From an uncultured Paludibacter sp. (GTDB lineage Bacteria > Bacteroidota > Bacteroidia > Bacteroidales > Paludibacteraceae), in the NCBI GenBank assembly GCA_964390175.1, contig CAYMHE010000002.1:13930-77929 (forward strand): a DNA stretch of 64,000 bases. The letters run 5' to 3'. Under the pieces are notes generated by a model that had not been told where the DNA came from, made no database searches, and saw only the letters and a program-made list of their open reading frames with translations. The translations under genes were made by a program, and so were the position numbers. Shown in pieces: positions 6,042 through 31,728 of the stretch (positions are counted from its first letter, which is position 1; the number at the start of each line of letters is the position of its first letter).

Positions 6042-7259
6042 ATGACAAAAAAAACAGAATATCCGCTCGTTCAAATAATACTTTTGTTTGTTTTTTTACT
6101 GTTCGGACAGTTCAAAAGCTTCGCCAACGATTCTATTAATATCACGGCAGTCCGAACTAAAATTGAAGCTCAGTTAGATTCATTTAACCTACAATCGGAT
6201 GGAAAATCAGCAATAAAGGCGAACATCAATGAAAAGCAGCAAACTCAACTTATCGGAACAACCAATCGCCCGAAAGACTTCTTAACCCTGAAAGAAAGTT
6301 GGAGGAAAAGAAAAATTGAATTTACCGACAGTGTGCGCCTTCAATCAAATCCGGCTTTGGGAGATAAAGTATACGGACTCATCAATGTTTCGGTGGCGAA
6401 CCTTCGCTCCGAACCTCTGCACTCCGCCGAACTTTCGACACAGGCACTTTTAGGGACACCCATCAATATACTCGACAAAAAGAACAACTGGCTGCTGGTG
6501 CAAACTCCCGACAACTATGTTTCGTGGACAGAGGAAAGCACAGTAACCATTCTGAACCGACAAGAGATAAACAAGTGGATGGATGCCCGAAAAATAGTGT
6601 ACTACCAAAACTATGGTAGCAGCTACGAAAAAGCCGACACAAGATCTCAAACCATTTCGGATGTTGTGATTTGCAATATTTTCGAGTACATATCAGAAAA
6701 CAGAAATTTCATAAATGTAATGTACCCCGACAAAAGAGTGGCTTTTTTAAAGAAAACCGACTGTATCGACTACAGTAAATGGATCAACTTACCGAATCCA
6801 ACTCCAGCGGACATAATCAAAACAGCAAAAACATTTACAGGAATTCCTTACCTTTGGGGAGGAACATCCTCAAAAGGACTTGATTGCTCGGGCTTTACAA
6901 AACTCACATTTCTTATTTACGGCGTTATCATACAGCGCGATGCATCACAGCAAGCCAACTATGGATTTATTTCAAACGCTACAACTTTCGACAAACTACA
7001 ACCAGGCAACCTACTGTTTTTTGGCAGAAAAGATAAAGACACAGACAAGGTCTCCATCACACACGTGGCCATTTACACACACAACAACGAATATATTCAT
7101 GCTTCGGGAATGGTGAGTTACAACAGTTTCGACAGCAATTCACCCATTTTCAGCCCCTACCGTGCCAACTCGTTTACAAAGGCAAGCGACTATGTTTCGG
7201 CAATAGGCACTGCAAACATTACGAAAGTGAAAAACAGTATTTTTTACAACAAACACTAA
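6042..7259 (+). CDS. ykfC: SH3 + NlpC/P60 peptidase, YkfC-like gamma-D-Glu-diamino acid endopeptidase, exported
   Basis: N-terminal signal peptide; VSVANLRSEP..ELSTQALLG SH3b region; PYLWGG..GLDCSGF, RDASQQ and ITHVAIY catalytic motifs. Confidence 0.85.
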   Translation: MTKKTEYPLVQIILLFVFLLFGQFKSFANDSINITAVRTKIEAQLDSFNLQSDGKSAIKANINEKQQTQLIGTTNRPKDFLTLKESWRKRKIEFTDSVRLQSNPALGDKVYGLINVSVANLRSEPLHSAELSTQALLGTPINILDKKNNWLLVQTPDNYVSWTEESTVTILNRQEINKWMDARKIVYYQNYGSSYEKADTRSQTISDVVICNIFEYISENRNFINVMYPDKRVAFLKKTDCIDYSKWINLPNPTPADIIKTAKTFTGIPYLWGGTSSKGLDCSGFTKLTFLIYGVIIQRDASQQANYGFISNATTFDKLQPGNLLFFGRKDKDTDKVSITHVAIYTHNNEYIHASGMVSYNSFDSNSPIFSPYRANSFTKASDYVSAIGTANITKVKNSIFYNKH

Positions 7260-7281
7260 CATCATCTCAAATTATACAGTT

Positions 7282-8421
7282 ATGACTACAAATCGACGGG
7301 ATTTTCTGAAAATATCCGGACTTACACTGGGTTTATCCTTCATTGACACAAAATCGGCTGCAGCTCCGCTTATAAATTGTTTCGGTTCAAAAAAAACGCA
7401 AAAAATGAAACTATCATTCCAACTCTATAACTTAATGCTGAAACACACATTTACCGTGGCCAGCAATTCACGCACAACAACGCCTGTAGTATTAACCCAA
7501 ATTGAGTACGATGGCATCATTGGGTACGGAGAAGCATCAATGCCTCCCTACCTTGGCGAAACGCAGGCATCGGTCACAAAGTTTCTTTCAAAAGTCGACT
7601 TGTCGTCCTTTAACGATCCGTTTCAGCTGGATGAAATTCTGGCTTACATTGATGGAATTGAAGAAAAGAACACAGCCGCCAAAGCCGCCATCGACATTGC
7701 CCTGCACGATCTGACAGGCAAAATACTAAATCAGCCCATCCACAGAATATGGGGACTTTCGAAAAAAAACACGCCCAACACCTCATTCACAATAGGTATC
7801 GACACACCGGAAATTATAAAAGAGAAAACCCTTGAAGCCGGAAATCAATACAAAATATTAAAAGTAAAACTCGGGCGCAACAACGACAAGGAGATTATAG
7901 AAACCATACGCTCGGTGACCGACACGCCGCTTTGCGTAGACGTAAACCAGGGCTGGACCGACAAGAAAATGGCACTGGACATGATTTACTGGCTGAAAGA
8001 AAAAAATATAGTTTTCGTAGAACAACCCATGAGCAAAGAAAACATGGAAGATATGGCCTGGCTTACCCAACACAGTCCTCTGCCTGTCATAGCCGACGAA
8101 GCCGTTCAGCGACTTGCCGACGTAAAACATTTATACCAGGTTTATTCGGGCATTAACGTAAAACTAATGAAATGCGGAGGCATGCGCGAAGCTCACAAAA
8201 TGATAGAACTTGCACATGCACTGAATATGAAAACAATGATAGGCTGCATGACCGAGACATCCTGCGCTGTTTCAGCAGCTGCTCAACTATCGCCACTCAC
8301 TGATTGGGCCGATTTGGATGGCAACTTACTCATTACAAACGACGTATTTGAAGGCATCAAAATAATCAACGGAAAAGTCACCCTTAATGACAGACCGGGA
8401 ATAGGGATTAGAAAAGTTTAA
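7282..8421 (+). CDS. ykfB: L-Ala-D/L-Glu dipeptide epimerase (enolase superfamily) with Tat signal
   Basis: NRRDFLK twin-arginine motif; KVK, DVNQGW, EQP, ADE, KLMKCGG and DLDG motifs; follows the ykfC-like gene. Confidence 0.88.
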   Translation: MTTNRRDFLKISGLTLGLSFIDTKSAAAPLINCFGSKKTQKMKLSFQLYNLMLKHTFTVASNSRTTTPVVLTQIEYDGIIGYGEASMPPYLGETQASVTKFLSKVDLSSFNDPFQLDEILAYIDGIEEKNTAAKAAIDIALHDLTGKILNQPIHRIWGLSKKNTPNTSFTIGIDTPEIIKEKTLEAGNQYKILKVKLGRNNDKEIIETIRSVTDTPLCVDVNQGWTDKKMALDMIYWLKEKNIVFVEQPMSKENMEDMAWLTQHSPLPVIADEAVQRLADVKHLYQVYSGINVKLMKCGGMREAHKMIELAHALNMKTMIGCMTETSCAVSAAAQLSPLTDWADLDGNLLITNDVFEGIKIINGKVTLNDRPGIGIRKV

Positions 8422-8432
8422 CAGGATGATCA

Positions 8433-8622
8433 GGCAGACAGCTTAAAAGATCAGACTTCAACAGTTCAGGAGTTTTACCCCTCTCCACCCGACTCCTTAT
8501 GGGCACAACGATGTTTTATGTTTACTGTCTGCCACTTCGGGAGCTGCTATGTTTCCTGTTCTACTGCAGTCCCTCCCTTACATAGCCTTTTCATCACGGG
8601 ATGATTCAAAGTCACCCTGTGA
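8433..8622 (-). ncRNA. Candidate structured RNA / structured 3' tail downstream of the orphan gene
   Basis: Nested inverted repeats 8433-8441/8525-8533, 8444-8452/8510-8518, 8468-8473/8492-8497, 8546-8552/8580-8586, 8594-8600/8615-8622; GC-rich relative to other spacers; strand inferred. Confidence 0.35.
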
Positions 8623-8659
8623 AGATCGTCAGCACATCACCCTAAAAACACCAACGGCA

Positions 8660-9325
8660 TTAACCCGCTATTGTGGCACTTACAGTAACACTCCACGGTC
8701 CGGCTTCGCCACGCATATTTACCCAACGCAACCAGTAATACACCGTTTTACCAACCTTATTTCCATCAAATTTCATAACACAGGGACTAGCGGTGTTGGT
8801 AGCAACATAAATTAACTCCGAAACATCTTTAGGTGCTTCACCATCCACTTTCATGAAAATTTCGCACCCATGTACGCCGGCCGGTTTTGCATTGCTGTGG
8901 GCCGAGGCTTCGTCGTAATAACTAATGGAATGTTGCAAGCGCATCGAAAAATCAACAATCCCCACGGGACTTGTAGCAGGCACGGGAGTTGGCGTGCGTG
9001 TTCCGGTTTTTACAGTAAGCCCCATACGCGTGCGGTCGGCATCAGTTACTTTTGAGTTGTAGGCCAACCATTGCGATACAAAGCCACGGATTATTCTTTT
9101 ATACTGCCTGTTGGCTTCGTCTTTAGTAGCCACATCGGCCGAAGTGCGGTTTAGTTTGTTACTCGCCTTCGCATAAGCGATTTGCCACACTCTTTGCCCT
9201 GATTTTAGCGCTGCAAAATCGTCGGCATTAATACTCCAGGCGATTAGATTTGGCTCAATAATCGCTACTAAGTTTCCCTGCCATACATTAAAGTCGGCAT
9301 CGTTTTTCGAAATGTAGTCTGACAT
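8660..9325 (-). CDS. Hypothetical cytoplasmic protein: helical N-terminal domain, Pro/Thr linker, FN3-like C-terminal domain
   Basis: 221-aa ORF; TPTPVPATSP linker; C-terminal VYYWLRWVNMRGEAGPWS resembles the FN3 terminal strands; no signal peptide. Confidence 0.75.
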   Translation of the reverse strand: MSDYISKNDADFNVWQGNLVAIIEPNLIAWSINADDFAALKSGQRVWQIAYAKASNKLNRTSADVATKDEANRQYKRIIRGFVSQWLAYNSKVTDADRTRMGLTVKTGTRTPTPVPATSPVGIVDFSMRLQHSISYYDEASAHSNAKPAGVHGCEIFMKVDGEAPKDVSELIYVATNTASPCVMKFDGNKVGKTVYYWLRWVNMRGEAGPWSVTVSATIAG

Positions 9326-9430
9326 AATTTTAAGTTTTTAAATTAAACTTGATTTCTATTATTTCATATCTTATTGGTTATAAAACGTCTGTATTTAAAT
9401 TACTTTTCCTATCAACTTCATAATTTAAAA

Positions 9431-9682
9431 ATTTCTCCCGGGGCGGAAGCTTTTTCTCTCGGGGAAAAAACTTTTTCTCTCAGGAAAAATTTATTTTCTC
9501 TCGGGGGAAAAACCTTTTCTCTCAGGAGAAAAATGATCTCTCTCAAGGGAAAATCTTTTTCTTTTTGGACGGAAGCTTTTTCTCTAAAGAGAATGTCATT
9601 TTCTCTCAGGGGAAATTCTTTTTCTCTCAGGGAAAAAACTTTCTCTCCTAAAGTAGAATATTTCCGTCCTAAGGAAATTTTT
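9431..9682. repeat. Tandem array of 12 x 21-bp degenerate quasi-palindromic units (TTTTCTCTC-xGG-GAAAA-nnn)
   Basis: Units start at 9431, 9452, 9473, 9494, 9515, 9536, 9557, 9578, 9599, 9620, 9641 and 9662 with no indels. Confidence 0.9.
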
Positions 9683-9770
9683 CCATTCCTGACATAGCTT
9701 ATTGAATTGACCCTCTATTAGGAAAGCTGGATCAACTGACAATAATATTTCTGTATCAACATTTTCGGTT

Positions 9771-9827
9771 CAAATCTATAAATATAGATTGAGAAAAATG
9801 TCGCGTTTTTAAAAATGCGACATTTTT
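9771..9827 (-). promoter_or_regulatory. Minus-strand -7 box (TAGATTTG) overlapped by an 18-bp palindrome and next to a 34-bp near-perfect palindrome
   Basis: CAAATCTA 9771-9778; AATCTATA-AA-TATAGATT 9773-9790; AAAAATGTCGCGTTTTTAAAAATGCGACATTTTT 9794-9827. Confidence 0.5.
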
Positions 9828-10549
9828 GTTGAAAAGGGACAAAAATAAAGCTAAGTGAAAGGATCTGTTTTCAATATGTATATATATTTATAATTTTGAT
9901 TATGTGCAACTTAAAAATGGAGTGTGTGCCACCATAAGGCACAATAAATTCAATGTTAATGTTTGTGAATAGGGAATGCTTACAGGTGTTGTTTTGTATT
10001 TTATTTTTACGAATACGCGTTTTGCTCGCTGTATAAATATCAATAAATATTAGCTTATGTGGATTATAAAAGCAATTGACTATCAAAGGCACACTGGGCG
10101 TACAAAAACAGAAAACAAAAAACTTAAACTATGTATTGTCTGCCTTTTCAAGGAAACAAAAACCATGTTTATATTTCTTAAATAAAATTGCGTGCCTTAT
10201 GTGCCTTTTGTTGTGCTTTTCCACAATTAAATAAAACAAAAGATAATCATAAAATTTAAGCAATTTAAACACAACAATAAATAGTAAAAAACAAATCGCT
10301 TACATAAAGCCATCAACTGCTTTCAAAATTTAAATTATAGATTCTATAACAAATATGCATGTATTAGCTCCTTTACAAGCACTATTTTCACACTAAGCAA
10401 GCCACATTAACGCATTAAAACATTATTTAAATGAAAAAATACAGCATAACACCACCCCAAACAGAAACTCAAACATGCAAATTCATAATAAGTTATAAAA
10501 TGACAGCAAAAAAATAGAATCATTTTACATTTATTTAAAAAATATTATT

Positions 10550-10577
10550 TACATTTGTCGCGCTGCAAACGTTTGCA
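10550..10577 (+). promoter_or_regulatory. Promoter -7 box TACATTTG followed by operator TGCAAACGTTTGCA
   Basis: TAnnTTTG at 10550-10557; perfect 14-bp palindrome at 10564-10577 near the expected transcription start. Confidence 0.7.
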
Positions 10578-11120
10578 ACTTTAGTCAAAATGCATAAATT
10601 CTAAAGAACGATTAGCAAACATAAAAGAATGAAAGGCGAACAAACACTTTACACATTGCAGATGTAAGTTGAGGATAGCTTCCCTAAAGAGCTATTCAAT
10701 TTTCAATAACTATCAGTTGAGACAATTCTTGAAATAAATCATCTCAAAGATTTCTGTCGACAATGGCAAATAAACTTATTATAAGAACTAAATATCGTTA
10801 CCAACACAAGGGCTCTTTATGAAAACAACATACAGCATGAAGCAACTAACAAAATGCAAAGACCTGATAAACAAACATCATGTCGACAGCAATTTGTCTA
10901 CAAGCTACATATTTCAATAACAAAATATTAACATCACCCAACTCCGTTCATTTCTTGCTTCGCCATCAACAGATACAAAACAAGTTTTAACCGGACAACA
11001 GACACAATAAAACAAAAAAACCAACTTATACAATTTGAATTTAAGATGTGGACGCCTCAAGTCTTAAATTTTTTAATGAAGGCGCAATCAATCATTCATT
11101 TTATTTACAATTCCAAAGTT

Positions 11121-14100
11121 ATGATTAAAACAATTCGGGAAAAATGGATGCGTTTGGGTATAATACTCATAATGATGTTATTCACCATCACAGGAGCTTA
11201 TGCACAAAGCAAAGTAATTAAAGGTAAAGTAATTGACCAAAGCAAACAGCCAATCATTGGTGCCGCTGTGAAAATTATCGGCACTTCAAGTGGTACAATT
11301 ACAGATGTAGATGGGAATTTCGTTATCAATGCGACTCCCAAAAACATCATTTCAATCTCTTATATGGGATACAAACCCATCGAAGAAACTATTGGCGAAA
11401 GAACTATTATCAATGTCACAATGCAGGAAGATGCAAAAATGCTTCAGGAAACAGTTGTAACTGCCGAATTTGGCGTAAAAAGAATCGGCCGTTCCATTGG
11501 TGGTGCCGTTCAAAACATCAAAGGTTCGGACATTGCAGAATCAGGACGCGAAAACTTTATCAACTCACTCCAGGGAAGGGTTGCCGGTGTTAACATCACT
11601 GCCTCTTCCGGCTCTCCGGGAGCATCTTCTACTGTTGTGTTCAGAGCACCTACTTCAATTTCAGGCAACAACAGCCCTCTTTATGTCATCGACGGGATAC
11701 CAATGAGCAACAGCACATTTGACATGAACAGCCAGTGGGCTAAAGCACCTTCAACTGCCACCGTGGGAATGCAAAATGACTTTACGAACCGCGGTTCAGA
11801 CATCGACCCAAACAACATTGAAAGTATAAATGTATTGAAAGGCGCAACTGCTGCTGCATTATACGGCTCAGATGCTTCCAATGGAGCAATTATAATTACC
11901 ACAAAAAAAGGAAAATCGGGAAAAGCCAAGATGTCATATAACAACATGGTGAAGTACGATGTAGTAAACAGATATCCTGAAATTCAGACAATTTACGATC
12001 AGGGAAATTATGGGAGCACCAATTATTATAACACAGGAAAATGGGGGGCACCATACGCTCAGGGAACAAAGTTATACAACAACTTATCCGAACTTTTCCA
12101 AACAGGAGTAAGCCAACAACACAATCTTGTTTTCGATGCCGGTAATGATATAATGACAATACGCGCCTCGGCAAGCATACTTGATCAAACAGGTATCGTT
12201 CCGGTTGCTGGCTACAAACGCAAAAACCTTTCGGTTTCAGGTACAATAAAAGCAGCAAAGTGGATTAATCTGAGCGCTTCGATGCAATACATTAACAGCA
12301 CAAACAATAAAGTTGCAAAAGGCACCGGTGGAGTTTTAGACTTAGCAATGAAATGGCCATTGACTGATAACATGTCAAATTTCCTGGCTGAAGATGGAAC
12401 ATCTATTAAATATCCTGACAGATACGGAGATATTGATATTCTGAATCCATACTTTGACATCTACAGAAATAAACGGCAAGATGCTACTGATCGTTTCATT
12501 TCAACAATGAATGTAGCCCTTACACCGCTAGAAGGACTTGAAATAAGGGCTTTGGCAGGTTGGGATTTATCGTCAAGTACATATATAACATCTATAAATC
12601 CTCAATTTACAACTTCTAAAATAAAAAGCGGAAGCTACGATCAGTCCAATGTAGTGGAATCAAACCCAACATTGAACCTTATTGCTACGTATTCGAAAAA
12701 AATAGCCAAGTTCGATGTTTCATTACAGGGTGGATACAACCAATCAGAAACAGGGTCGAAAACTTTAGCCGTACACGGAGAAAATTTCTATGTTCAGGAT
12801 TTTCAATCAATTAATAACTGCGATCCATTGACAATTGTAAATTTACAAGCAACAAGAATACGCAGAGTTCAGGCTTTGTTTGGCTCATTTATGGCATCTT
12901 ACGACAATCTTTTGTTTTTAACCCTGAGAGGAAGAAACGATTGGTCGTCGACATTGCCAATTGAAAACAGATCGTATTTTTATCCTGCTGCCGACTTTAG
13001 CTTCATTCTATCAGATCTTCCATTCATGAAGAAACACGCTGACACATGGAGTTACGTAAAACTCAGAGGATCGGTAGCTCAGGTAGGTAAAGATGCACCT
13101 CCATTGTCTATTCAGCCTGCACTTCTATTGCAAACAACCACTGCAGCAGGATATGCTTATGGATTTACCGGACCGAACAAAAACTTAAAACCTGAAATTG
13201 ATCAGGCATGGGAGGTTGGTATCGAAGGACGATTGTTCGACAACAGATTGAATTTTGACCTGGCCTACTATAGCACCGAATCAAAAGATCAAATTATCAC
13301 AGGATTCCGCATGTCCTATGCAACAGGATTTATACTCAACAACAGAAACATGGGATCTTTCAAAACCAACGGAGCTGAATTCCTGGTTTCATATGACATT
13401 GTAAGAAGCAACGATTTACTCGTCAACATTGGCATAAACGGAAGTAAAAACTGGAGCGAAGTTCTGTCATTACCTCCGGGTGTTACAGAATATTATAATT
13501 CGGCAACCTGGGTTTCAGGAAACCTCAGAAACGGAATTATGGTGGGAAGTCCAATCACAACAATTACCGGACTCGACTATCAGCGCAATGACAATGGACA
13601 AATACTTGTTGACCCAACAAGCGGTTTGCCTTTGGTAAATAGCAAATGGTCGGTACTCGGCGACAGAGAACCTGAATTTTCGTACGGCTTCACAGGTAAG
13701 GCAATCTACAAGAACATTACATTCTCCTTCTTAATGAACGGAAAAGTAGGCACTCAGGTAGTAAACGGAACAAAAAGAGTAATGTTTGCCAATGGCTCGA
13801 GCATGGAATCTGTTGCTCAAAGAAGTTTAGGTGCAATTGTATTCAATGGCGTATTAAAAGATGGTCTTGAAAACAGCTCCAAACCAACACCGAACAATAT
13901 AGCTACAAAATTGAGCGACTTAGCAACCGGTTATGCCGGAGCCGATCCTGATTGGATTGAAAAAGACATAAATTATCTGAATCTATCAGAAGTAAGACTT
14001 TCGTATAACTTCGAAAAAGAATTATTACGAAAACTTACCGGCAATCTGATTTCATCTCTAACTGTTTATGCTGCAGGCACCGACCTATTCTTACTTACAA

Positions 14101-14231
14101 ACTACTCAGGCCTCGATCCTATTGGGAATGCAACATCTTCGGCCGTAGGAGGAACTGGTGGTGTAGGTTTCGACATGTTAAGCATAGGATCGCCAAGAGG
14201 ATTCTCATGTGGATTAAACGTTACTTTTTAA
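11121..14231 (+). CDS. susC: SusC/RagA family TonB-dependent outer membrane transporter
   Basis: Signal peptide, N-terminal CarboxypepD-like domain, PLYVIDG, DIDPNNIESINVLKGATAAALYGSDASNGAIIITTKKG, C-terminal F; start 11121 or 11148. Confidence 0.95.
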   Translation: MIKTIREKWMRLGIILIMMLFTITGAYAQSKVIKGKVIDQSKQPIIGAAVKIIGTSSGTITDVDGNFVINATPKNIISISYMGYKPIEETIGERTIINVTMQEDAKMLQETVVTAEFGVKRIGRSIGGAVQNIKGSDIAESGRENFINSLQGRVAGVNITASSGSPGASSTVVFRAPTSISGNNSPLYVIDGIPMSNSTFDMNSQWAKAPSTATVGMQNDFTNRGSDIDPNNIESINVLKGATAAALYGSDASNGAIIITTKKGKSGKAKMSYNNMVKYDVVNRYPEIQTIYDQGNYGSTNYYNTGKWGAPYAQGTKLYNNLSELFQTGVSQQHNLVFDAGNDIMTIRASASILDQTGIVPVAGYKRKNLSVSGTIKAAKWINLSASMQYINSTNNKVAKGTGGVLDLAMKWPLTDNMSNFLAEDGTSIKYPDRYGDIDILNPYFDIYRNKRQDATDRFISTMNVALTPLEGLEIRALAGWDLSSSTYITSINPQFTTSKIKSGSYDQSNVVESNPTLNLIATYSKKIAKFDVSLQGGYNQSETGSKTLAVHGENFYVQDFQSINNCDPLTIVNLQATRIRRVQALFGSFMASYDNLLFLTLRGRNDWSSTLPIENRSYFYPAADFSFILSDLPFMKKHADTWSYVKLRGSVAQVGKDAPPLSIQPALLLQTTTAAGYAYGFTGPNKNLKPEIDQAWEVGIEGRLFDNRLNFDLAYYSTESKDQIITGFRMSYATGFILNNRNMGSFKTNGAEFLVSYDIVRSNDLLVNIGINGSKNWSEVLSLPPGVTEYYNSATWVSGNLRNGIMVGSPITTITGLDYQRNDNGQILVDPTSGLPLVNSKWSVLGDREPEFSYGFTGKAIYKNITFSFLMNGKVGTQVVNGTKRVMFANGSSMESVAQRSLGAIVFNGVLKDGLENSSKPTPNNIATKLSDLATGYAGADPDWIEKDINYLNLSEVRLSYNFEKELLRKLTGNLISSLTVYAAGTDLFLLTNYSGLDPIGNATSSAVGGTGGVGFDMLSIGSPRGFSCGLNVTF

Positions 14232-14242
14232 TTTTTGAAAAT

Positions 14243-16051: not shown

Positions 16052-16073
16052 TAACTAATAATTATTTCACTTT

Positions 16074-16928
16074 ATGAAAAAGATATATTTTATAGTTTTA
16101 GCTATATTTGGCATGTTGATTACTTCCTGCCAAACCAATGAGATAACATTCCCATTTGAAGAGCTGAATACTGATCAGTTTTCGGAGATCAGACTTATAA
16201 ACGCTATACCTGTTACCGGAAGCAGCGACTCTTTGGTTATCAACGGAAACAGATATTCATCAGTAGCCACCTCATTAGGAAGTTACTACCCGGCATCTGC
16301 TGCCAAATATTTTGCTCTGCCGGTTGGCGACAACAGTGTATCGCTGCGCTTCTTAGCGAAAACTACCGCTCCTACTGTTGATGCATTTACTTATTCTGCT
16401 AGCATTAAAACAACAAAAGGCAAATGGTCAGCTTATATTTATGATAAAACCAAAAGCCCTGTTTTACTGCAAGATGCAGAATCAGTACCAACTACAGATG
16501 CATGGAAAGATACGGTATGTTTCATTCGGTTTGTAAACTTTTTCCACAAATCGGATGGGGTAACTCCATTCGGGAAAATAACATTGAAAGCAAAAAAGAA
16601 CCTTACCGGCGCAGCATGGGAAACCATAGCCACGGATATTGATTTTGGAACTCAATCTTCAGAGTATTTTATCTACAAACTGAAGAATGTAACAAATCTA
16701 AACCCATGGTCGGGTGCGGAGGCAAGTGTCACTATTGGTTTTTTTGATAGTGCTGGAAATCAATATCAACAGTTTTCGTCGGCAACTGCTTCTACAAAAT
16801 CGGCCTACTCAAGTACAGGATGGAGCTTTGCAAAAGGTAGGGCTTATGTCATCTATATTAATGGCAAAGAAGGATCTACAAACAATAAAGATCAATTTAT
16901 TCGGCTGGGGTCATTTCAAACTAAATAA
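16074..16928 (+). CDS. PUL-associated surface lipoprotein (DUF4397-like beta-sandwich repeats)
   Basis: Lipobox LITSC; two repeats of IRL/FVN-type strands; third gene of the susCD operon. Confidence 0.65.
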   Translation: MKKIYFIVLAIFGMLITSCQTNEITFPFEELNTDQFSEIRLINAIPVTGSSDSLVINGNRYSSVATSLGSYYPASAAKYFALPVGDNSVSLRFLAKTTAPTVDAFTYSASIKTTKGKWSAYIYDKTKSPVLLQDAESVPTTDAWKDTVCFIRFVNFFHKSDGVTPFGKITLKAKKNLTGAAWETIATDIDFGTQSSEYFIYKLKNVTNLNPWSGAEASVTIGFFDSAGNQYQQFSSATASTKSAYSSTGWSFAKGRAYVIYINGKEGSTNNKDQFIRLGSFQTK

Positions 16929-16950
16929 ACTCGGCTGAACAAGCAACTTT

Positions 16951-17038
16951 ACAACCACTTAAAATTCAATTTTTTATTGAACAATCATTGATAAATTTCA
17001 ATGAAATAAAATGGAAAATTGAATTTTTAAGTGGTTGT
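16951..17038. terminator. Long imperfect hairpin between convergent genes (probable bidirectional terminator)
   Basis: ACAACCACTTAAAATTCAATTTT ... AAAATTGAATTTTTAAGTGGTTGT arms. Confidence 0.6.
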
Positions 17039-17194
17039 TTTTTCAATAAAAATCATTCTTAATACTGCAACGATCAACTCTTAAACATTTACAAAATGCA
17101 AGCAGACAGTTGAAAACAAGCTACTGAACCACCCATAAAAAATGCCGACAAAAGCCGGCATTTGTTGGAATAAAGCAATGACTAAACAACACAA

Positions 17195-20411: not shown

Positions 20412-20461
20412 TGCAAACGTTTGCATTAAATTTGAAAAATCCGATTTTTTTTGTAATTTTG
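20412..20461 (+). promoter_or_regulatory. Operator TGCAAACGTTTGCA and promoter TTTG-N19-TAATTTTG in the kinase / nagB-like divergent region
   Basis: Palindrome 20412-20425; -33 TTTG 20431-20434; -7 box 20454-20461. Confidence 0.7.
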
Positions 20462-22534: not shown

Positions 22535-23989
22535 ATGAAACAAATCAATTGCTTTATTGCATTTAAAGATGCAGCTCAAACACGTGAGACTGTAGAGAAT
22601 TTACTAAAATCAGCTACTGTAAACAAAGTTTATCTATTGGCTACCGAGCCTACAAACGAAACAGTTCCCGGATGCGAAATGTTATTCATTGATGCAATGA
22701 ACAGCAGCGCCACCGTTCGGAAAATTGCAGAAAAATCGGATACTGAATACAGCCTTATTTACACGAAATTCACGACACTCGAGCCGGGACAATATGCTCT
22801 CGAACGCTTTCTCAGAGTGGCCAACGACACCCGCGCCGGCTTGGTTTATTCGGATTATTACCAGATTGCCGACGGCGTTCGTTCCAATTTGCCTGTAATT
22901 GACTATCAACAAGGCAGTTTGCGCGACGATTTTAATTTTGGTTCTGTTTTATTCTACAATGCAAGCTGTTTGAAAAAAGCAGTTGAGGAAACCACTCAGG
23001 AATACAAATTTGCAGGACTCTACAACCTGCGCCTGAAAGTTTCGGAATATGCCGAACTCTTCCACATGAACGAATACCTGTATTCGGAAGTAGAATCGGA
23101 TACAAGAAAAAGTGGCGAAAAGATTTTCGACTACGTGGATCCGAAAAACAGAACAGCACAAATTGAAATGGAAGTGGCCTGCACCGAACACCTGAAAAAA
23201 ATCGGAGCTTATCTGGCACCTCAATTCAAAAAAATTGAGTTCAACGAAGGTAAATTCCCTGTGGAAGCTTCGGTGATTATTCCTGTGCGCAACCGCGTAA
23301 AAACAGTGGAAGATGCTATCGTATCGGTGTTGTCTCAGAAAACTGACTTTGCATTCAACCTCATCATTGTTGACAATTACTCAACCGACGGCACCACCGA
23401 AATCATCGAAAAACATGCAAAAGCCGATAGCCGACTGATTCACCTGATACCCGAACGTACCGACCTTGGTATAGGCGGATGCTGGAATGCAGGCGTGGAC
23501 TCAGCACTTTGCGGAAAATTTGCAGTGCAGCTGGACAGCGACGATGTGTACGAAAACGAAAATACTTTACAAACCATAGTAAATGCTTTTTACGAGCAAA
23601 ACTGCGCCATGGTAATCGGCTCGTACACAATGACCAACTTTGCCATGGAAACCATTGCTCCCGGACTGATTGACCACAAGGAATGGACGCCCGAAAACGG
23701 CAGAAACAATGCTTTGCGCATCAACGGACTGGGCGCACCACGCGCTTTCTACACACCGGTATTGCGTAACATCAAAGTACCAAACACAAGCTATGGCGAA
23801 GATTACGCCCTCGGACTGGCCATAAGCCGCGAGTACCAAATCGGACGTATTTACAATTCGGTTTACCTCTGCCGCCGCTGGGACGACAACTCGGATGCTT
23901 CGCTCGACGTAGTGAAAATGAACGGACACAACTTCTACAAAGATAAAATCCGTACCATTGAACTGATGGCCCGAAAGAACAGAAATTAA
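22535..23989 (+). CDS. Two-domain glycosyltransferase family 2 protein
   Basis: C-terminal SVIIPVRNR, VDNYSTDGT, QLDSDD and YGEDY motifs; N-terminal degenerate GT-A-like domain (LVYSDY). Confidence 0.85.
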   Translation: MKQINCFIAFKDAAQTRETVENLLKSATVNKVYLLATEPTNETVPGCEMLFIDAMNSSATVRKIAEKSDTEYSLIYTKFTTLEPGQYALERFLRVANDTRAGLVYSDYYQIADGVRSNLPVIDYQQGSLRDDFNFGSVLFYNASCLKKAVEETTQEYKFAGLYNLRLKVSEYAELFHMNEYLYSEVESDTRKSGEKIFDYVDPKNRTAQIEMEVACTEHLKKIGAYLAPQFKKIEFNEGKFPVEASVIIPVRNRVKTVEDAIVSVLSQKTDFAFNLIIVDNYSTDGTTEIIEKHAKADSRLIHLIPERTDLGIGGCWNAGVDSALCGKFAVQLDSDDVYENENTLQTIVNAFYEQNCAMVIGSYTMTNFAMETIAPGLIDHKEWTPENGRNNALRINGLGAPRAFYTPVLRNIKVPNTSYGEDYALGLAISREYQIGRIYNSVYLCRRWDDNSDASLDVVKMNGHNFYKDKIRTIELMARKNRN

Positions 23990-24148: not shown

Positions 24149-25597
24149 ATGAAAAAGCATTACATTTTTAGCTTGTGTTTGTGTTTCTTATGCACAACTT
24201 TTTTGTCCCGCCTATCGGCACAGGAGTACAACAATTTCGATTTAAACAAGTACTACACACCAGACATTGTGCGCAATGCGCTGGATTTAGACTTTAGCTC
24301 TTCCGGTCAATTTGCAAATGTATATAACGAGTTTGATCATCTGTCCGTTACCAACGAGTCTTTTTCTTCGAACATTGCTGGCACAATAAATTCCTCATTC
24401 AGCACCTATAGAAATACGCGGAAAAGAATTTCGTCGCTGATGCTTAACGGATCTTTCTCAGGATCTTATTCCTCAATCCGGGAGACAACCGGATCCACCA
24501 ACAAAAATAACAGCAACACTGGTGGTCTGAACTTAAATTATTCCGACAAGTTTTATAAAACATCAACACTTTTTCTTTCAGCAGGTATAATAGCTCGGTT
24601 AATCCCAACATACAACAAACAACAGTTGCAATCCGATCCAAATCCAAAAGAAATAAATGAGAAAATTAACCGATATTATTTTAATCCATCTATAGGAATA
24701 GGTATAGGAAGAATAGAGCAGGTACAGGATGCCCGTCAGGCCATCTACCTGTTGAATGATTTATCAAAAAAAGGGGTTTTAAGCCGACAACTAACAAATA
24801 ATGAAGTTTTCAGTCTTGCACAGCAAATGTCGAAGATAAAAAACAAACGCTTCCTCGATTCACGTTTGCGCTTGATCGAAGAAGTTACAACCATCGATGC
24901 TTTCTTTGTAAACAATGGTTTACTTAACAAATCGGATGCTGCCTATTTTACAACTTTGTACGACAATTGGTTGTATGGAGCCGCTTTTGAAAGAAAATCG
25001 GGACAGACTTTTGAATTTCAAATCAACGGTGACTTTATAAAAAGTTACGGTAAAACTGAAACAAACTTTACCGTTCAGGATTCAGTCTATTGGACCAAAT
25101 ACAACTCCAATCTGGGCCATGGCGGATTGGCTTTGCTTTACACATTCGAAAAACCGTTTAAGCTCAACTGGCAACATTCAGTAAATGCAGTATTAAACGC
25201 TTTTACCGAACCTACCGAGCATACAAATTCGAATAGCAACAGCACAACCAAAAGCATTGCCTCTTTTAACAACAGCCAGATATCGCTTTCCGGAAATTAC
25301 ATTTTGGGTTATTACCCAAATTCACGTACAAATCTTCAGCTTGGAATAAGTCAGTTATTTGGTCGGCAGATTACAAAAAGCACAACGGTTAATGTAGCTG
25401 CAAATCAAACTAAAAACATCAACGCCAGAACACAAATCGATTTTTCGACCTACTATTATTTATCCCCGCAATTAAGAATTTCGGGAACAGTATGGGCATA
25501 CAAAACTTATCATAGAAGGAATTATGCAGATTCCGGTTCAAAAGCTAATAATTTTAACGCGCAGTTTAATGCCACTTTGAACTACGCATTTTTCTAA
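24149..25597 (+). CDS. Hypothetical exported protein, probable outer-membrane beta-barrel
   Basis: Signal peptide; alternating beta-strand pattern; C-terminal LNYAFF. Confidence 0.6.
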   Translation: MKKHYIFSLCLCFLCTTFLSRLSAQEYNNFDLNKYYTPDIVRNALDLDFSSSGQFANVYNEFDHLSVTNESFSSNIAGTINSSFSTYRNTRKRISSLMLNGSFSGSYSSIRETTGSTNKNNSNTGGLNLNYSDKFYKTSTLFLSAGIIARLIPTYNKQQLQSDPNPKEINEKINRYYFNPSIGIGIGRIEQVQDARQAIYLLNDLSKKGVLSRQLTNNEVFSLAQQMSKIKNKRFLDSRLRLIEEVTTIDAFFVNNGLLNKSDAAYFTTLYDNWLYGAAFERKSGQTFEFQINGDFIKSYGKTETNFTVQDSVYWTKYNSNLGHGGLALLYTFEKPFKLNWQHSVNAVLNAFTEPTEHTNSNSNSTTKSIASFNNSQISLSGNYILGYYPNSRTNLQLGISQLFGRQITKSTTVNVAANQTKNINARTQIDFSTYYYLSPQLRISGTVWAYKTYHRRNYADSGSKANNFNAQFNATLNYAFF

Positions 25598-25618: not shown

Positions 25619-26515
25619 ATGAACAATCTCAACAATCAGGTAAAATCTTTATTCGACGAGCAAGTTGCCAACTGGGAACTTGCCCGTCGGAATTTTGCAG
25701 GACTCAAAACCGTACAAACCAAGACCTTTAATTTCGGCGATTTCGACATAAAAGTACAGTTTAACCCGGCGCGCATTGTATCCTCAGGAGCAAAAGTCGA
25801 CGCCAAAACCATAGCCGAACGCAAATGCTTCCTGTGCAGCGAGCATTTGCCAACGGAACAAAAAGGAATAGAGGCGGGAAATTATACCATTTTGGTGAAC
25901 CCCTTCCCTATTTTTCCTGAACATTTCACAATTCCGCACACCGAACATATTCGCCAGCAGATAAAACCGTTTTTTGGCGATATGCTCGAACTTGCCAAAG
26001 CAATGGACGATTATCTGATTTTTTACAACGGGCCCAAATGTGGCGCTTCGGCACCCGACCATATGCACTTTCAGGCAGGCACCAAGGACTTTTTACCGCT
26101 GATCAGCGATTATAAAAGGCTCAAAGCTACCCACACTGATGTGTTGGTAGAAGATGATGAGTACACGGTATTCTGCATGAAAAATTACCTGCGCACCGTT
26201 TATTGCATTGAATCGGGAAATGCTAAAGAATCGAAACTGGTATTTAATTCGCTATACACCAACCTTCAGCAATCGAACACCGAAGAGCCCATGATGAATG
26301 TTGTGTGTACTTTCGAAGATGGCATATGGTACACCTTCGTCCTTCCCCGCAAGGAGTTCCGGCCATGGCAATTTACTGCCGAAGGAGATCAGCAGCTAAT
26401 GGTAAGTCCGGCTACGGTAGAGATGTGTGGCATTTTTATAACTCCCATTGAGCAGCATTTCGAAAAAATAACAAAAGAAGATGTGATCAGCATACTTGAA
26501 CAAGTGAGTCTTTGA
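25619..26515 (+). CDS. DUF4922-like protein; HIT-superfamily HxHxQ nucleotidyltransferase/phosphorylase
   Basis: QFNPARI, CFLC, LVNPFPI..H and YNGPKCGASAPDHMHFQ motifs. Confidence 0.8.
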   Translation: MNNLNNQVKSLFDEQVANWELARRNFAGLKTVQTKTFNFGDFDIKVQFNPARIVSSGAKVDAKTIAERKCFLCSEHLPTEQKGIEAGNYTILVNPFPIFPEHFTIPHTEHIRQQIKPFFGDMLELAKAMDDYLIFYNGPKCGASAPDHMHFQAGTKDFLPLISDYKRLKATHTDVLVEDDEYTVFCMKNYLRTVYCIESGNAKESKLVFNSLYTNLQQSNTEEPMMNVVCTFEDGIWYTFVLPRKEFRPWQFTAEGDQQLMVSPATVEMCGIFITPIEQHFEKITKEDVISILEQVSL

Positions 26516-26543
26516 AAAGACACAGTGAACATATAATTTTTTA

Positions 26544-26774
26544 GAAAATGCTATTTCAAAAAAAGGAAAGGCACTTAAAAAAACAGAAAAAACTATTTAA
26601 AAAATAGCAGAAGCTATATCAAAAACAAGAGAAGCACTTTCAAAAACAAGAGAAGCACTTTCGAAAACACGAGAAGCACTTTCGGAAACAAGAGAAGCAC
26701 TTTCGGAGACAAGAAAAGCACTTTCGGAGACACGAGAAGAATCTATATAGAAAGACAAAGCATTTCAGAAGAAG
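26544..26774. repeat. Tandem array of ~11 x 21-bp units (core AGAGAAGCACTTTCRRAAACA)
   Basis: Five near-identical units at 26628-26732 with degenerate flanking units in the same register. Confidence 0.9.
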
Positions 26775-27217: not shown

Positions 27218-27221
27218 TGCA

Positions 27222-28406
27222 ATGAGATACAAGCTAACATCCATTCTGTTGCTATACTTCGCAGTGCTTGTTTCAGCTCAAAGCACGGCCAGATACGTCG
27301 ACACCGACGTGCGCGCCATGCAAATACCAAAAGCATCAACAAGAACAGTGGAGGATATTGCTGCCTACATTAAGGCTAACTTCAGTACCGACGAAGAGAA
27401 AGCACGTGCCGTTTTTTACTGGATTTCGCAAACCATAAGTTACGACATTGCCAACATGTACACTACCAACTATTACGACAATGAACAGCAGGTGGTGGAT
27501 GAGGTAATGAAATGGCGCAAAGGAGTGTGCATGCATTATGCCACGCTGATGAGCTGGATTTGCAACCGGACAGGCGTGAAAACCTTTGTGGTGGGCGGCT
27601 ATACCCGCCAGAACGGTAAAGTCGACATTCTTTCGCACGCCTGGAATGTAAGCTTTGTAAATGGAAAATGGCAAATGATCGACCCTACCTGGGGCACAGG
27701 TCAAATAGTCAACGGCAAATTCGTACGCCAGCTGAACAATGAGTTTTTTCTGATGCAACCGGAAGAAAGCATCAAATCGCACTGTCCGTTCGACCCAATG
27801 TGGCAATTGCTACAGTACCCTATCGACAACAATAACTTTTCGAAAGGAATTGTAGCCATCGACAAAAGCAAACCCCTGTTCAGTTTCAACGATTCGATTG
27901 CAGCTTACGAAAAAGCAGATGAACTGACCCGTCAGAAAACGGAGCTGCGCCGAATGGAAAACAATGGTATCAACAGCAAACTCCTTCAGGAAAACCAGCA
28001 TAACATCAAGAACAGAATCAACGGCATTCAGAAAAACGCATCGATAGAGATATTAAACAATGCAGTGAATACGCTCAACCAGGGAGTGAACGACCTGAAT
28101 GAATTTATCAATTATCGCAACAAACAATTTACACCCAAAAGATCGGATGCTGCGCTCAAACTAATGCTTGAGAACATTGAAGTAACCCTTGCCCGGTACA
28201 AAACAGAAGTGGCCGGCATAGCCTATGCCGATCCGGGTATAAAATACTCATTGAGCGAACTCAACAAAACAATGCAAAGCATGGAGGAAGCATTGGCAGA
28301 ACAGAGAACTTTTTTAGATAAATATTTGTCAACCTCAAAAATATTCAGAAAATCATTATTTTATAACTATAATTGGCTGGGAATACCCCTTCATCAAAGC
28401 AAATGA
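27222..28406 (+). CDS. Exported transglutaminase-like (papain-fold Cys-His-Asp) protein
   Basis: Signal peptide; GVCMHYA, HAWN and IDPTW triad motifs; helical C-terminus. Confidence 0.8.
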   Translation: MRYKLTSILLLYFAVLVSAQSTARYVDTDVRAMQIPKASTRTVEDIAAYIKANFSTDEEKARAVFYWISQTISYDIANMYTTNYYDNEQQVVDEVMKWRKGVCMHYATLMSWICNRTGVKTFVVGGYTRQNGKVDILSHAWNVSFVNGKWQMIDPTWGTGQIVNGKFVRQLNNEFFLMQPEESIKSHCPFDPMWQLLQYPIDNNNFSKGIVAIDKSKPLFSFNDSIAAYEKADELTRQKTELRRMENNGINSKLLQENQHNIKNRINGIQKNASIEILNNAVNTLNQGVNDLNEFINYRNKQFTPKRSDAALKLMLENIEVTLARYKTEVAGIAYADPGIKYSLSELNKTMQSMEEALAEQRTFLDKYLSTSKIFRKSLFYNYNWLGIPLHQSK

Positions 28407-29743
28407 ATCATAAAGAACCGGTAATACAAGTAGGTATTTTAACCTCAGAAAAAATTGAATTTGTGCTGAATGGCATTTTCATAGCACAAACAGGAAAAGA
28501 TTATAGCGGCCATCAAACTGCCGCCTACGACAATGGCAAAGTGCTTTTCGACGAAAAAGAGTTCGATGAGCTGATTTTCGAACCCATCAACGGCGAAACA
28601 TCATTCGACCTTATCAATGTGGTCATCGGCATTAATTTTCACTGGGAACGCAAAGAAGACCAGCGTTTCAAAGGCGCGCTGCGCATCATTGCTGAAGAAA
28701 ACAACATCACTGCCATCAACCGTATCGGCGTTGAAGACTATCTCACAAGTGTAATTTCGAGCGAAATGAGTGCAACTGCCTCCGACGAATTGCTCAAAGC
28801 ACATGCAGTAATTTCGCGCAGTTGGTTACTCAAACCGCTACACGAACAAGATAGCGCGAGCCACGAGCCGGCAGCTCCAACAGAATTCAACACTGTGGAT
28901 ACAGAAAATGCAATTGAAACACACATCAAATGGTACGAACGCGACGCCCATACGCACTTCGATGTTTGTGCCGACGATCATTGTCAGCGCTACCAGGGCA
29001 TTACGCGCGCTACTACCAAAGCGGTGGAAAAAGCCATCGAGGCTACCCGCGGCGAAGTATTGATGGCAGGAGATGAAATATGCGATGCACGTTTTTCAAA
29101 ATCCTGCGGCGGCGTTTCCGAGACTTTCGAGAACTGCTGGGCGCCCAAACATTACACGTATCTTTCGAAAGTGATAGACAACCTGACTGCACCCGAGGGC
29201 TTCGAACTCGATTTAACCATTGAAGCCAATGCCGATCGATGGATTCGTCAGTCGCCCGAAGCATTTTGCAACAGTACCGACAAAAAAGTCTTATCGCAGG
29301 TGCTCAACAATTACGACCAGGAAACCACCGACTTCTACCGCTGGAAAGTAGAGTACAGCCAATCGGAACTATCAGAATTATTGCTTCGTCGTTCGGGCAT
29401 CGATTTTGGCTACATCGTCGACCTGGTGCCTGTAAAACGAGGAGAATCGGGACGACTTGTCGAACTCAAAATTATTGGAACAAAACGAACCGTCATCGTA
29501 GGCAAAGAATTAGAAATTCGCAAATGGCTTTCGAATTCTCATCTCTACAGTTCGGCTTTCGTAGTTGACAAAACGGCTATCGAAAATAACATTCCACAAC
29601 AATTCATACTTACAGGAGCCGGTTGGGGACATGGAGCAGGCCTTTGTCAGATAGGCGCTGCCGTTATGGGAGAAAAAGGTTATCAATACAAACAAATCTT
29701 GTTACACTATTTCAGAGGAGCATCGTTGGAGAAAATATACTAA
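28403..29743 (+). CDS. SpoIID/LytB domain protein (lytic transglycosylase family)
   Basis: EDYLTSVISSEM, LKAHAVISRS, CADDHCQRYQG, GWGHGAGLCQ and ILLHYF motifs; ATG overlaps the upstream stop (ATGA). Confidence 0.9.
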   Translation: MNHKEPVIQVGILTSEKIEFVLNGIFIAQTGKDYSGHQTAAYDNGKVLFDEKEFDELIFEPINGETSFDLINVVIGINFHWERKEDQRFKGALRIIAEENNITAINRIGVEDYLTSVISSEMSATASDELLKAHAVISRSWLLKPLHEQDSASHEPAAPTEFNTVDTENAIETHIKWYERDAHTHFDVCADDHCQRYQGITRATTKAVEKAIEATRGEVLMAGDEICDARFSKSCGGVSETFENCWAPKHYTYLSKVIDNLTAPEGFELDLTIEANADRWIRQSPEAFCNSTDKKVLSQVLNNYDQETTDFYRWKVEYSQSELSELLLRRSGIDFGYIVDLVPVKRGESGRLVELKIIGTKRTVIVGKELEIRKWLSNSHLYSSAFVVDKTAIENNIPQQFILTGAGWGHGAGLCQIGAAVMGEKGYQYKQILLHYFRGASLEKIY

Positions 29744-29859
29744 TCCAACAGTTGTTACAATTCAACAAACCGGTCGGATAAAAATCCGACAAGGAAATGA
29801 ATCATCAGAGAACAACCTCAAATTTAAAACAGAAAACAAGAAATTAAACTTCAATACAA

Positions 29860-31728
29860 ATGGAAAACAAACAAACAAAGAAGAGCTCACCCTGGGCATG
29901 GATACCTACCCTCTATTTTGCAGAAGGCTTACCCTATGTAGTGGCCATGACGGTAGCAGTAATTATGTACAAACGTCTCGGCATTTCGAACACCGATATT
30001 GCCCTTTACACAAGTTGGCTGTATTTGCCATGGGTTATTAAACCTTTCTGGAGTCCGTTTGTGGATTTGATAAAAACAAAACGCTGGTGGATTGTCAGTA
30101 TGCAAATGCTGATCGGCGCCGGTCTGGCCGGAGTGGCATTCCTCATCCCTATGCCCTTCTTCTTTCAGGCTACACTGGCTGTGCTTTGGCTCATTGCCTT
30201 CAGTTCGGCAACACACGATATCGCCGCCGATGGATTTTATATGTTGGCGCTCAATAGTTCACAGCAGTCTTTCTTTGTGGGCATCCGCAGCACCTTTTAT
30301 CGCCTGGCTATGATTTCGGGACAAGGCGTACTGATTATCATTGCCGGTAGCCTCGAAAGCTGGACAGGACTTGAACCCATGCAATTTACGGTCCAATCGT
30401 CCAATACGGCACAAACAGAAATAATACTGCCGTCACCAAATACAAACATTGCCCCTACCGACGAAATGACTTTTATTGCATTTCCCGAAAACCTTGTTCT
30501 GAACACAAACAACATCAGTGTCGATTCTTTGAATAAAATCAGGACTTTTGCTTCGGAACAAAATCAGGTAAATGGCTTTGTTGCTATCGAAAAGACAGCT
30601 GCTGAAATTAAAAAAGACGATGCTTCATGGTGGACACACAATGTTTCGGCACCTTTGGGTCATTTTATAAAAACAAATTTTGGCGAAAAAAGAGAGATCG
30701 TTTCGGGCAGTGATGGGAAAGTGGGAAATGCCGGCGTTGTAGCTGTTCGGCTGAGTAAAAAACCTGAACCCGGACAGGATGTGGTACTTAATTCAAGTTT
30801 TGGCAAAGGAGACAAGAGCATCTCTTTGCTCTCAGGCGAACGCGTAGTATTTAACGAAAGCAACTGGGACAAACCCGCTTATCTGGTTGTTCAGCTCGAT
30901 TATAAACTCAGAGACGAAGTAAAAAGCGAATTCAAAGGTATTTCGGGCAATATAAAGCTGGCCTGGAGCATCACCTTCTTTATTCTTGCCGGTATGTTTA
31001 TATTGTTCTTTGTTTACCACAGATTTGTACTTCCCCGCCCGACTTCCGACCATGCCACTGCCACCCATTCGGCAAGCGACATCTTGCGCGAATTCGGAGG
31101 AACTTTCAAATCGTTCTTCCAGAAACCGGGAGTAGGACTTGCCATTACCTTTATGCTTCTCTACCGTTTAGGCGAAGCCATGTTGGTAAAAATGGCATCG
31201 CCATTCCTGCTCGATGCCCGTGAAGTTGGAGGACTTGGACTTACAACAGGTCAGGTAGGGTTGGTATATGGAACTGTTGGTATCATTGCACTCACACTCG
31301 GAGGTATAGTAGGAGGTATTGCAGCATCGCACAAGGGACTTAAATTCTGGATATGGCCCATGGCTTTGTGTATTACATTACCACACTTGGCCTTCCTTTA
31401 TTTATCGTGGTTTCTACCCGAAAATTTATTCCTGATCAATGCAGCGGTGGCCTTCGAACAGTTCGGATATGGATTCGGATTTACAGCTTACATGCTATAT
31501 ATGATTTATTTTGCCGATGGAGAACACAAAACAGCGCACTATGCCATTTGTACCGGTTTTATGGCCATGGGCATGATGCTCCCGGGCATGATAGCCGGCT
31601 GGTTGCAGGATTTGCTGGGTTACAATCATTTCTTTATCTGGGTAATGATTTGTGCCATTCCTACACTAGCTGTTATACCATTTATGAAAATCGACAAAAA
31701 CTATGGTATAAAAAAGAAAGAAGCTTAA
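29860..31728 (+). CDS. ampG: AmpG-like MFS muropeptide permease with a large inserted soluble domain
   Basis: LYFAEGLP, LPWVIKPFWSPFVD, SATHDIAADG and LYRLGE motifs; ~190-aa hydrophilic insert. Confidence 0.85.
   Translation: MENKQTKKSSPWAWIPTLYFAEGLPYVVAMTVAVIMYKRLGISNTDIALYTSWLYLPWVIKPFWSPFVDLIKTKRWWIVSMQMLIGAGLAGVAFLIPMPFFFQATLAVLWLIAFSSATHDIAADGFYMLALNSSQQSFFVGIRSTFYRLAMISGQGVLIIIAGSLESWTGLEPMQFTVQSSNTAQTEIILPSPNTNIAPTDEMTFIAFPENLVLNTNNISVDSLNKIRTFASEQNQVNGFVAIEKTAAEIKKDDASWWTHNVSAPLGHFIKTNFGEKREIVSGSDGKVGNAGVVAVRLSKKPEPGQDVVLNSSFGKGDKSISLLSGERVVFNESNWDKPAYLVVQLDYKLRDEVKSEFKGISGNIKLAWSITFFILAGMFILFFVYHRFVLPRPTSDHATATHSASDILREFGGTFKSFFQKPGVGLAITFMLLYRLGEAMLVKMASPFLLDAREVGGLGLTTGQVGLVYGTVGIIALTLGGIVGGIAASHKGLKFWIWPMALCITLPHLAFLYLSWFLPENLFLINAAVAFEQFGYGFGFTAYMLYMIYFADGEHKTAHYAICTGFMAMGMMLPGMIAGWLQDLLGYNHFFIWVMICAIPTLAVIPFMKIDKNYGIKKKEA

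Follow-up and report, generated by a model that had tools for sequence, protein, structure and literature searches.

How Bacteroidota carry cell-wall fragments across the outer membrane is an open question. A locus of an uncultured Paludibacter sp. offers concrete SusCD candidates for this step, together with a candidate regulator. It occupies positions 6042–31728 of the window, the whole 64,000-nucleotide stretch analyzed here (GenBank assembly GCA_964390175.1, contig CAYMHE010000002.1, positions 13,930–77,929 of the forward strand). The initial annotation had read it as a polysaccharide utilization locus (PUL) for feeding on other bacteria's walls. We favor, with a probability of roughly 0.55, a narrower reading: soluble wall fragments with peptides attached enter from outside through the SusCD pair and feed a periplasmic line of amidase, peptidase and epimerase, with AmpG, MurK, MurQ and a PIG-L deacetylase handling the sugar. 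The evidence speaks more for uptake of soluble fragments than for growth on whole cell walls, because the locus has no surface endo-enzyme such as a PUL for intact walls should have.

The gene content of the window was taken from open reading frame (ORF) calling and family scans, by which every gene named in the initial annotation was found in place. Judged from the spacings between ORFs, the locus is made up of four transcription units, not one: ykfC-epimerase (+); susC-susD-lipoprotein (+); murK-murQ-amiA-GNAT (−); and nagB-like-GT2-outer-membrane-like protein-DUF4922-122-aa ORF-transglutaminase-like-spoIID-ampG (+). The second unit encodes a SusC TonB-dependent transporter (11046–14231, +; TIGR04056, 624 bits vs. 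a cut-off of 368), a SusD lid lipoprotein (14207–16051, +; PF12771/PF12741, with no close relative solved), whose gene overlaps susC by 25 bp, and a surface lipoprotein with two predicted β-sandwich domains (16074–16928, +) that accompanies this SusCD clade.

The YkfC-type γ-D-Glu-meso-diaminopimelate (mDAP) peptidase (6042–7259, +; SH3-NlpC/P60) has a signal peptide and the catalytic DCSG/H/H motifs, and its closest solved homologs are 3pvq, a Bacteroides YkfC (E 2e-65), and 3npf. The L-Ala-D/L-Glu epimerase of the enolase family (7282–8421, +; closest solved homolog 3iji, E 4e-154) has a twin-arginine-like (Tat) leader, with RRxF seen by eye both here and in each of the 20 orthologs inspected. 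A signal peptide is also present in the AmiA/DUF1460 anhydro-muramyl-L-Ala amidase (17703–18569, −; close solved homologs 2p1g and 4h4j). A periplasmic AmiA-YkfC-epimerase route of self-recycling was proposed for B. thetaiotaomicron; in the portions of that report on substrates, AmiA acts on N-acetylglucosamine (GlcNAc)-anhydro-N-acetylmuramic acid (MurNAc)-peptide, and free stem peptides are the sole substrates of YkfC (PMC4600125). The leaders on the three Paludibacter enzymes are consistent with this route.

The sugar branch comprises MurQ, the MurNAc-6-phosphate etherase (18589–19413, −; family score above cut-off), a BadF-type sugar kinase (19471–20313, −), assigned as MurK by position, its Pfam match being weak and below cut-offs, and the AmpG permease (29860–31728, +). 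This AmpG is of the long form, with an insertion of ∼190 residues (168–361) between its two halves; relatives have long (588–643 aa) or short (420–440 aa) forms. The NagB-like/PIG-L deacetylase fusion (20501–22483, +; NF002557) was compared by alignment with the canonical NagB that the same genome encodes separately on contig C25. At catalytic positions, which we take to be those of E. coli Asp72 and His143, the NagB-like domain has changed D to F, D to S and H to N, and the PIG-L domain retains HPDD. Given these lost and kept residues and the canonical NagB on C25, the fusion likely takes the place of NagA as GlcNAc-6-phosphate deacetylase. The SpoIID/LytB-family protein (28403–29743, +) retains the SEM motif, and may act in the cytoplasm on the imported anhydro-disaccharide, AnmK being absent in these genomes. 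No signal peptide is visible at any of seven N-termini (window and six orthologs), which is odd for a lytic transglycosylase. MurA is encoded in 4/5 genomes, the window's own included, so salvage would be nutritional or economical, not obligatory. In a 99% complete relative (G028), which carries the murQ-linked SusCD clade described below, murA was unmatched by the single query used; it is a possible MurNAc auxotroph.

The initial annotation had placed the SusCD pair under an operator shared with the salvage genes. The site is real: a perfect 14-bp palindrome, TGCAAACGTTTGCA, lies at 10564 (5′ of susC) and at 20412 (20412–20425, in the divergent murK/nagB-like promoter region, where it is conserved in many genus members). 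A third perfect copy lies 5′ of namZ on contig C156 of the window's own genome (G000; 172 contigs, 92% complete), and none was found in each of five shuffles of that genome. With up to two mismatches, 16 sites were found vs. 6–10 in the shuffles; the two-mismatch site 5′ of ykfC (5967–5980) therefore rests on its conservation in relatives (0–2 mismatches in G005, G002, G023 and G308). At susC (10550–10577, +) and at namZ the palindrome stands directly behind a TAnnTTTG element, presumably the Bacteroidetes −7-like consensus, a placement as expected for a repressor. The namZ genes, on contigs C156 and C3, are outside the span. The namZ operator (L090; C156, 2272) is divergent from methylglyoxal synthase, and several genus members share this layout.

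The operator does not, however, discriminate wall genes from α-glucan genes. Less exact intergenic copies lie 5′ of glucan phosphorylase, two GH77, GH97 and GH13 genes, an MFS transporter gene and a susC that belongs to a cluster on contig C36. Just 2 of the 9 SusC genes above cut-off in G000, the window's and the starch-cluster one, have the operator upstream, a point in favor of the wall-fragment reading. Perfect sites were present in 23 of 41 genus genomes (reversed control pattern, 0). The 67 perfect sites of the genus sample were classed by hand as wall (28), probable (2), α-glucan (19) or unassigned (18), and six genomes hold both wall and α-glucan perfect sites. Going by the genes it marks, the operator serves carbon-source use broadly rather than walls in particular, and because it also marks α-glucan genes, co-regulation does not prove the SusCD substrate. 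Unassigned perfect operators in seven loci (L112, L123, L125, L127, L134, L144 and L146) recur upstream of two exported families, ∼300-aa PD40-repeat proteins and a Pfam-less family, which are possible further regulon members.

No regulator gene lies inside the locus. A wall-specific regulator was sought in and near it and none was found (a TetR gene at 3769 was not examined further). LacI genes number two in G000, G005 (one contig, 99%), G028 and G072, three in G009 and five in G023. One of the two in G000 belongs to a hexuronate-like cluster, and the other, on C36, has an amylase-like gene, an MFS gene and a SusCD as neighbors; these cluster labels come partly from reading the sequences by hand. 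Perfect sites stand between the C36-type LacI gene and its susC in four genomes (L104, L118, L121 and L152), and the footprinted pneumococcal MalR sites, as set out in part of the published account, are nearly identical to the operator (PMC4451989). The C36 LacI of the starch cluster, which appears to be the sole fitting LacI in the genome, is predicted to read the wall-gene operators; a reader other than LacI may do so instead.

Synteny of the importer with salvage genes was a check proposed beforehand. A GTDB genome scan returned 112 SusD relatives, of which the best 80 are counted here. The core salvage set comprised ykfC, epimerase, amiA, murQ, murK, nagB-like, GT2, DUF4922, spoIID, ampG, NamZ, Amidase_3 and a GH3-β-lactamase fusion. 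Fetched loci span 3–22 kb, and some misses reflect short contigs. A cognate susC stands beside all SusD orthologs where the contig reaches, and the lipoprotein accompanies nearly all. Core salvage genes were found in 26/80 loci, most commonly the epimerase (17 loci) and ykfC (16 loci); a core gene occurs in 3.1% of 21.8-kb segments of the window's own genome. Linkage was 8/10 at SusD identity of at least 59%, 16/39 at 47–59% and 2/30 below 47%, in bands fixed independently of the tree and with L088 left out (no SusD ORF called). On subclades drawn after viewing the tree, with five short loci added by identity and the unlinked sister L033 put in the remainder, 8/10 loci were linked in the window's subclade and 16/17 in a Prolixibacteraceae-rich one, in differing gene orders, vs. 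2/53 among the remaining orthologs. The expected synteny thus holds in two SusD subclades and is mostly lacking outside them. In a FastTree tree built from 73 full-length orthologs, the linkage label changed 5 times vs. 20.6 when shuffled, which shows clustering only, since kin are not independent; the tree was used for this purpose and not for the direction of transfer. Among the SusD ortholog loci that carry a genus name, the closest are from Paludibacter metagenome-assembled genomes (L010 and L012).

Within the genus the importer position is variable. The window's SusD was found in 3/61 related genomes. In G005, G075 and G341 the flanks are 86–93% identical, yet an 8.7-kb cassette of the window (8422–17130) is unmatched, and a different SusCD pair lies between the epimerase and GNAT genes, with the operator upstream where the contig reaches. 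The SusD of this G005-type pair is closest to 6gcz and 9sje; an order-wide search with it at E 1e-110 gave 0/251 and is uninformative. A fourth SusCD pair fills the slot in G002. A third clade (L173/L174 type), absent from G000, occurs in 38/93 genus genomes; its distance from murQ is less than 15 kb in 18 genomes and less than 37 kb in all 24 same-contig cases. In G028 (L173:459-18160) this murQ-linked clade is followed by PKD, GHL10, NAGPA and Amidase_3 genes, three of them, including GHL10 and Amidase_3, with type IX secretion system (T9SS) tails, and from its gene content the locus looks more like a full wall-degrading PUL than the window's does. In both G028 (L173) and G072 (L174) the clade stands under a perfect operator next to murQ. 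An assembly chimera at the cassette is unlikely: the lipoprotein gene is joined to GNAT/amiA on a contig of a related strain from an independent run (X17), and the ykfC-epimerase-susCD order is identical in G023; the cassette may nevertheless vary between strains.

From these comparisons, (i) the importer is, on the evidence of the flanks, an exchangeable cassette; (ii) its repeated placement beside wall enzymes is suggestive; and (iii) the substrate cannot be read from the slot by itself, since a dextran-like pair occupies the slot in the closest relatives.

In the mechanism that we propose, SusD, SusC and the lipoprotein would capture muropeptides or stem peptides from lysing neighbors or shed by the cell itself. 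Going by family knowledge and signal sequences, AmiA would split the stem from GlcNAc-anhydroMurNAc in the periplasm, YkfC would then remove mDAP or Lys there, and the Tat-exported epimerase would convert L-Ala-D-Glu to L-Ala-L-Glu. AmpG, as is usual for its family, would carry the disaccharide inward; MurK, MurQ and the PIG-L domain would take MurNAc to glucosamine-6-phosphate, the last step falling to the canonical NagB on C25. A gap in the sugar branch is the opening of the anhydro ring without AnmK, for which the leaderless SpoIID protein is a candidate. One MalR-type LacI would derepress the wall genes jointly with amylases, glucanotransferases and glucan phosphorylase. A wider version is offered tentatively, as possible rather than probable: a necromass regulon in which one MalR-type LacI switches on both α-glucan (glycogen/starch) use and peptidoglycan scavenging, maltodextrin leaked from lysed bacteria is the cue for taking up and consuming their walls, SusCD pairs of at least three unrelated clades are interchangeable, and ring opening of the anhydro sugar falls in the cytoplasm to the leaderless SpoIID protein instead of AnmK.

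Several observations weigh against import of soluble wall fragments. The enzyme set of the locus is not new, matching the Bacteroides AmiA-YkfC-epimerase route and a Tannerella salvage cluster, and published self-recycling suffices to explain the enzymes alone. AnmK and NagA were each found in 0/5 genomes searched, and no NagZ scored above cut-off in the window's own genome, whose one GH20 is outside the locus; the pathway had been called near-complete, which overstates it. Among the ORFs of the span there is no muramidase, endo-amidase or T9SS-tailed enzyme to serve as the surface or secreted endo-enzyme of a PUL. The operator precedes the orthologous susC only in two Paludibacter loci (2/6, 0/31 and 0/24). 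The G005-type pair, present in G005, G075, G341, G025 and G308, has a SusC closest to that of the dextran utilisome 8aa4 (E 5e-190), and, with 13/15 matches examined, adjoins ykfC-epimerase in 6/6 loci with an identity of at least 74% but in 0/7 fetched at 61–69%, none of the latter being close to salvage genes. The nearest solved chain to the window's SusC is BT2264 (E 3e-87, full length). The SusD model (pLDDT 91.6) reached a template-modeling score of at most 0.62 in a fold search, at 13–18% identity, with peptide-, chitin- and glucan-binding SusDs tied; the model is confident, but so many SusDs matched equally that we drew no ligand from it. Finally, 51/53 ortholog loci outside the two subclades are without a core salvage neighbor, their frequent neighbors being DUF4251 (40), lpxK (23), M24 aminopeptidase (14) and S12 serine hydrolase (13) genes. 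With the housekeeping context of lpxK, or the M24 and S12 neighbors, peptides in general are still a plausible substrate.

The alternative that survives best, which we nevertheless regard as unlikely, is an ordinary self-recycling cluster beside whose periplasmic peptidases an importer for peptides in general, like BT2263-64, has landed. The BT2264 complex was peptide-bound in its crystal (PMC7782687), and the 53 ortholog loci mostly without wall genes often have an M24 aminopeptidase or S12 hydrolase. Against it, the two linked subclades stand with NamZ, AmpG, the GH3-β-lactamase fusion and Amidase_3 in varied orders, and in the fold search the window's SusD shares only 13–14% identity with BT2263, to which it is unmatched by sequence. 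The lipoprotein was modeled as well, again with confidence. BT2261/62 were not among the listed matches of the model, and its best match, the PepT2 extracellular domain (Z 12.6, root-mean-square deviation 3.6, 178 aligned), was set aside as a functional clue, the likeness being one of fold that says nothing about function.

More doubtful is that the importer mainly recaptures the cell's own leaked turnover fragments rather than the walls of other species. The absence of a surface lytic enzyme from the locus would fit, as would the substrate of AmiA, which is described in the recycling report, in the portion bearing on it, as the anhydro product of the cell's own lytic transglycosylases (PMC4600125). 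However, optional foraging accounts better than housekeeping for the catabolic nature of MurQ, for an operator of carbon-source type and for the presence of the pair in only 3/61 related genomes, and the operator is common to namZ, whose product trims muramidase-type ends. That the pair imports α-glucans or another glucan, being present only since the slot offers a MalR-controlled promoter, is improbable: the operator does match footprinted pneumococcal MalR sites (PMC4451989, in part) and mark glucan genes, and the alternative cassette of the closest relatives is dextran-importer-like, but glucanase and starch-binding genes are absent among the recurrent neighbors of the SusD clade, a separate starch-type SusCD lies beside LacI in the same genome, and the operator copy came with the cassette itself. 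Import of soluble wall fragments from outside remains the reading we prefer.

Sequencing runs from wastewater, sludge and digesters contain the stretch: in 14 DNA runs the share of its words that is present reaches 0.72 or more, and four of these are possible sources. Contigs from RNA libraries cover susC-susD-lipoprotein and nagB-like/GT2 in 4/4 runs (three studies), and the upstream non-coding DNA (8984–10975) is without RNA cover in three of the four. Run X17 covers silent DNA too and may contain DNA. The ykfC-epimerase unit is without RNA cover in two runs, which was not used as evidence. RNA contigs cannot rank genes or demonstrate co-transcription, and their cover is a weak hint that susC-susD-lipoprotein is transcribed.

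The remaining genes of the span include several that the initial annotation lacked: a GNAT acetyltransferase (17195–17698, −) kept beside amiA, an exported 482-aa outer-membrane-like protein of no family with a C-terminal Phe (24149–25597, +; patchy among relatives), an exported transglutaminase-like protein of papain fold with an intact C-H-D triad (27222–28406, +), and two small ORFs. The 221-aa one (8660–9325, −), of no known family by the scans, lies in the cassette. Low-complexity tandem repeats at 9420–9680 and 26560–26730 each adjoin a family-less small ORF (221 aa and 122 aa), and the former repeat has a relative on contig C112. Family scans further assigned a GT2 protein without signal peptide (22535–23989, +) and a DUF4922 HxHxQ (HMHFQ) nucleotide-phosphorylase-like protein (25619–26515, +). 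There are no glycoside hydrolase genes inside 6042–31728, in agreement with the initial description of a SusCD pair lacking a classical one as neighbor; outside the span, a GH3 lies at 37081. This BglX-type gene and a UmuD-like gene (37081–40161) lie past tyrA and secDF and showed no connection with the locus in the tests made.

We found no report in the open-access literature that demonstrates peptidoglycan import by a SusCD or describes a LacI regulon joining maltodextrin and wall genes; in the portions available, PMC11382707, PMC11467351 and PMC4052901 hold nothing on either. The targets listed for 35 characterised Sus-like systems, in the relevant section of a 2026 review, name no peptidoglycan (PMC13543919), and for Tannerella a SusCD role in wall-fragment import is only suggested in the corresponding passage of another report (PMC13764152). 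The interest of the locus lies mainly in the joint regulon, which can be tested, and in the importer candidates that it supplies. If true, the regulon would put two necromass polymers under one switch in a sludge and digester anaerobe, and would complement work on α-glucan necromass use in marine Bacteroidota, as that work is outlined in its summary parts (PMC11093988).

Set beside known systems, the locus works like a PUL, yet is not a demonstrated one. A tandem susC-susD and co-located enzymes for one polymer (YkfC, epimerase, AmiA, SpoIID, MurQ and AmpG) are present; the surface endo-enzyme is missing and the ligand is only predicted. The BT2261-64 SusCD complex (PDB 5fq6), of unknown function according to the review's entry (PMC13543919), resembles the Paludibacter one in having the nearest solved SusC, a SusD of the same broad group, an accessory lipoprotein and no glycoside hydrolase, and differs in its distant SusD, at the identity given above, and in that the window's neighborhood is wall salvage.

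The likeness to the ampG/murK/murQ salvage cluster of Tannerella forsythia, raised by the initial annotation, was borne out, the window having a GT2-DUF4922-spoIID-ampG run with murK-murQ that mirrors it. In the relevant portions of the Tannerella reports, Tanf_08345-08385 likewise groups two glycosyltransferase-annotated genes, lytB, ampG, murK and murQ (bioRxiv 10.1101/2021.12.02.470905; PMC7670621), and Tannerella, like the five genomes searched here, is without AnmK (PMC7670621). The window adds SusCD, ykfC, epimerase, amiA and the nagB-like gene. NamZ is linked in the Tannerella cluster, whereas here it is tied by the operator only, on another contig; murT, a member of that cluster, was not recognized among the ORFs of the span, a genome-wide search not having been made. 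Tannerella-type MurNAc auxotrophy is not seen here, murA scoring above cut-off in the window's own genome. Close exported homologs of all three members of the Bacteroides AmiA-YkfC (BT1314)-epimerase (BT1313) route are present, with catalytic motifs kept. That route was published, as far as its description in PMC4600125 extends, without an outer-membrane importer, whereas here SusCD and sugar catabolism stand under one operator. The Streptococcus pneumoniae MalR regulon, in the part of the report that lists its sites, has a near-identical operator core and amylase-type and glucan targets, as in Paludibacter (PMC4451989). The features of a MalR-type system found here are a CG-centered palindrome at α-glucan genes and beside a LacI gene. 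In Paludibacter the site is predicted to mark, in addition, murK/nagB-like, namZ, ykfC, amiA and wall-linked SusC genes.

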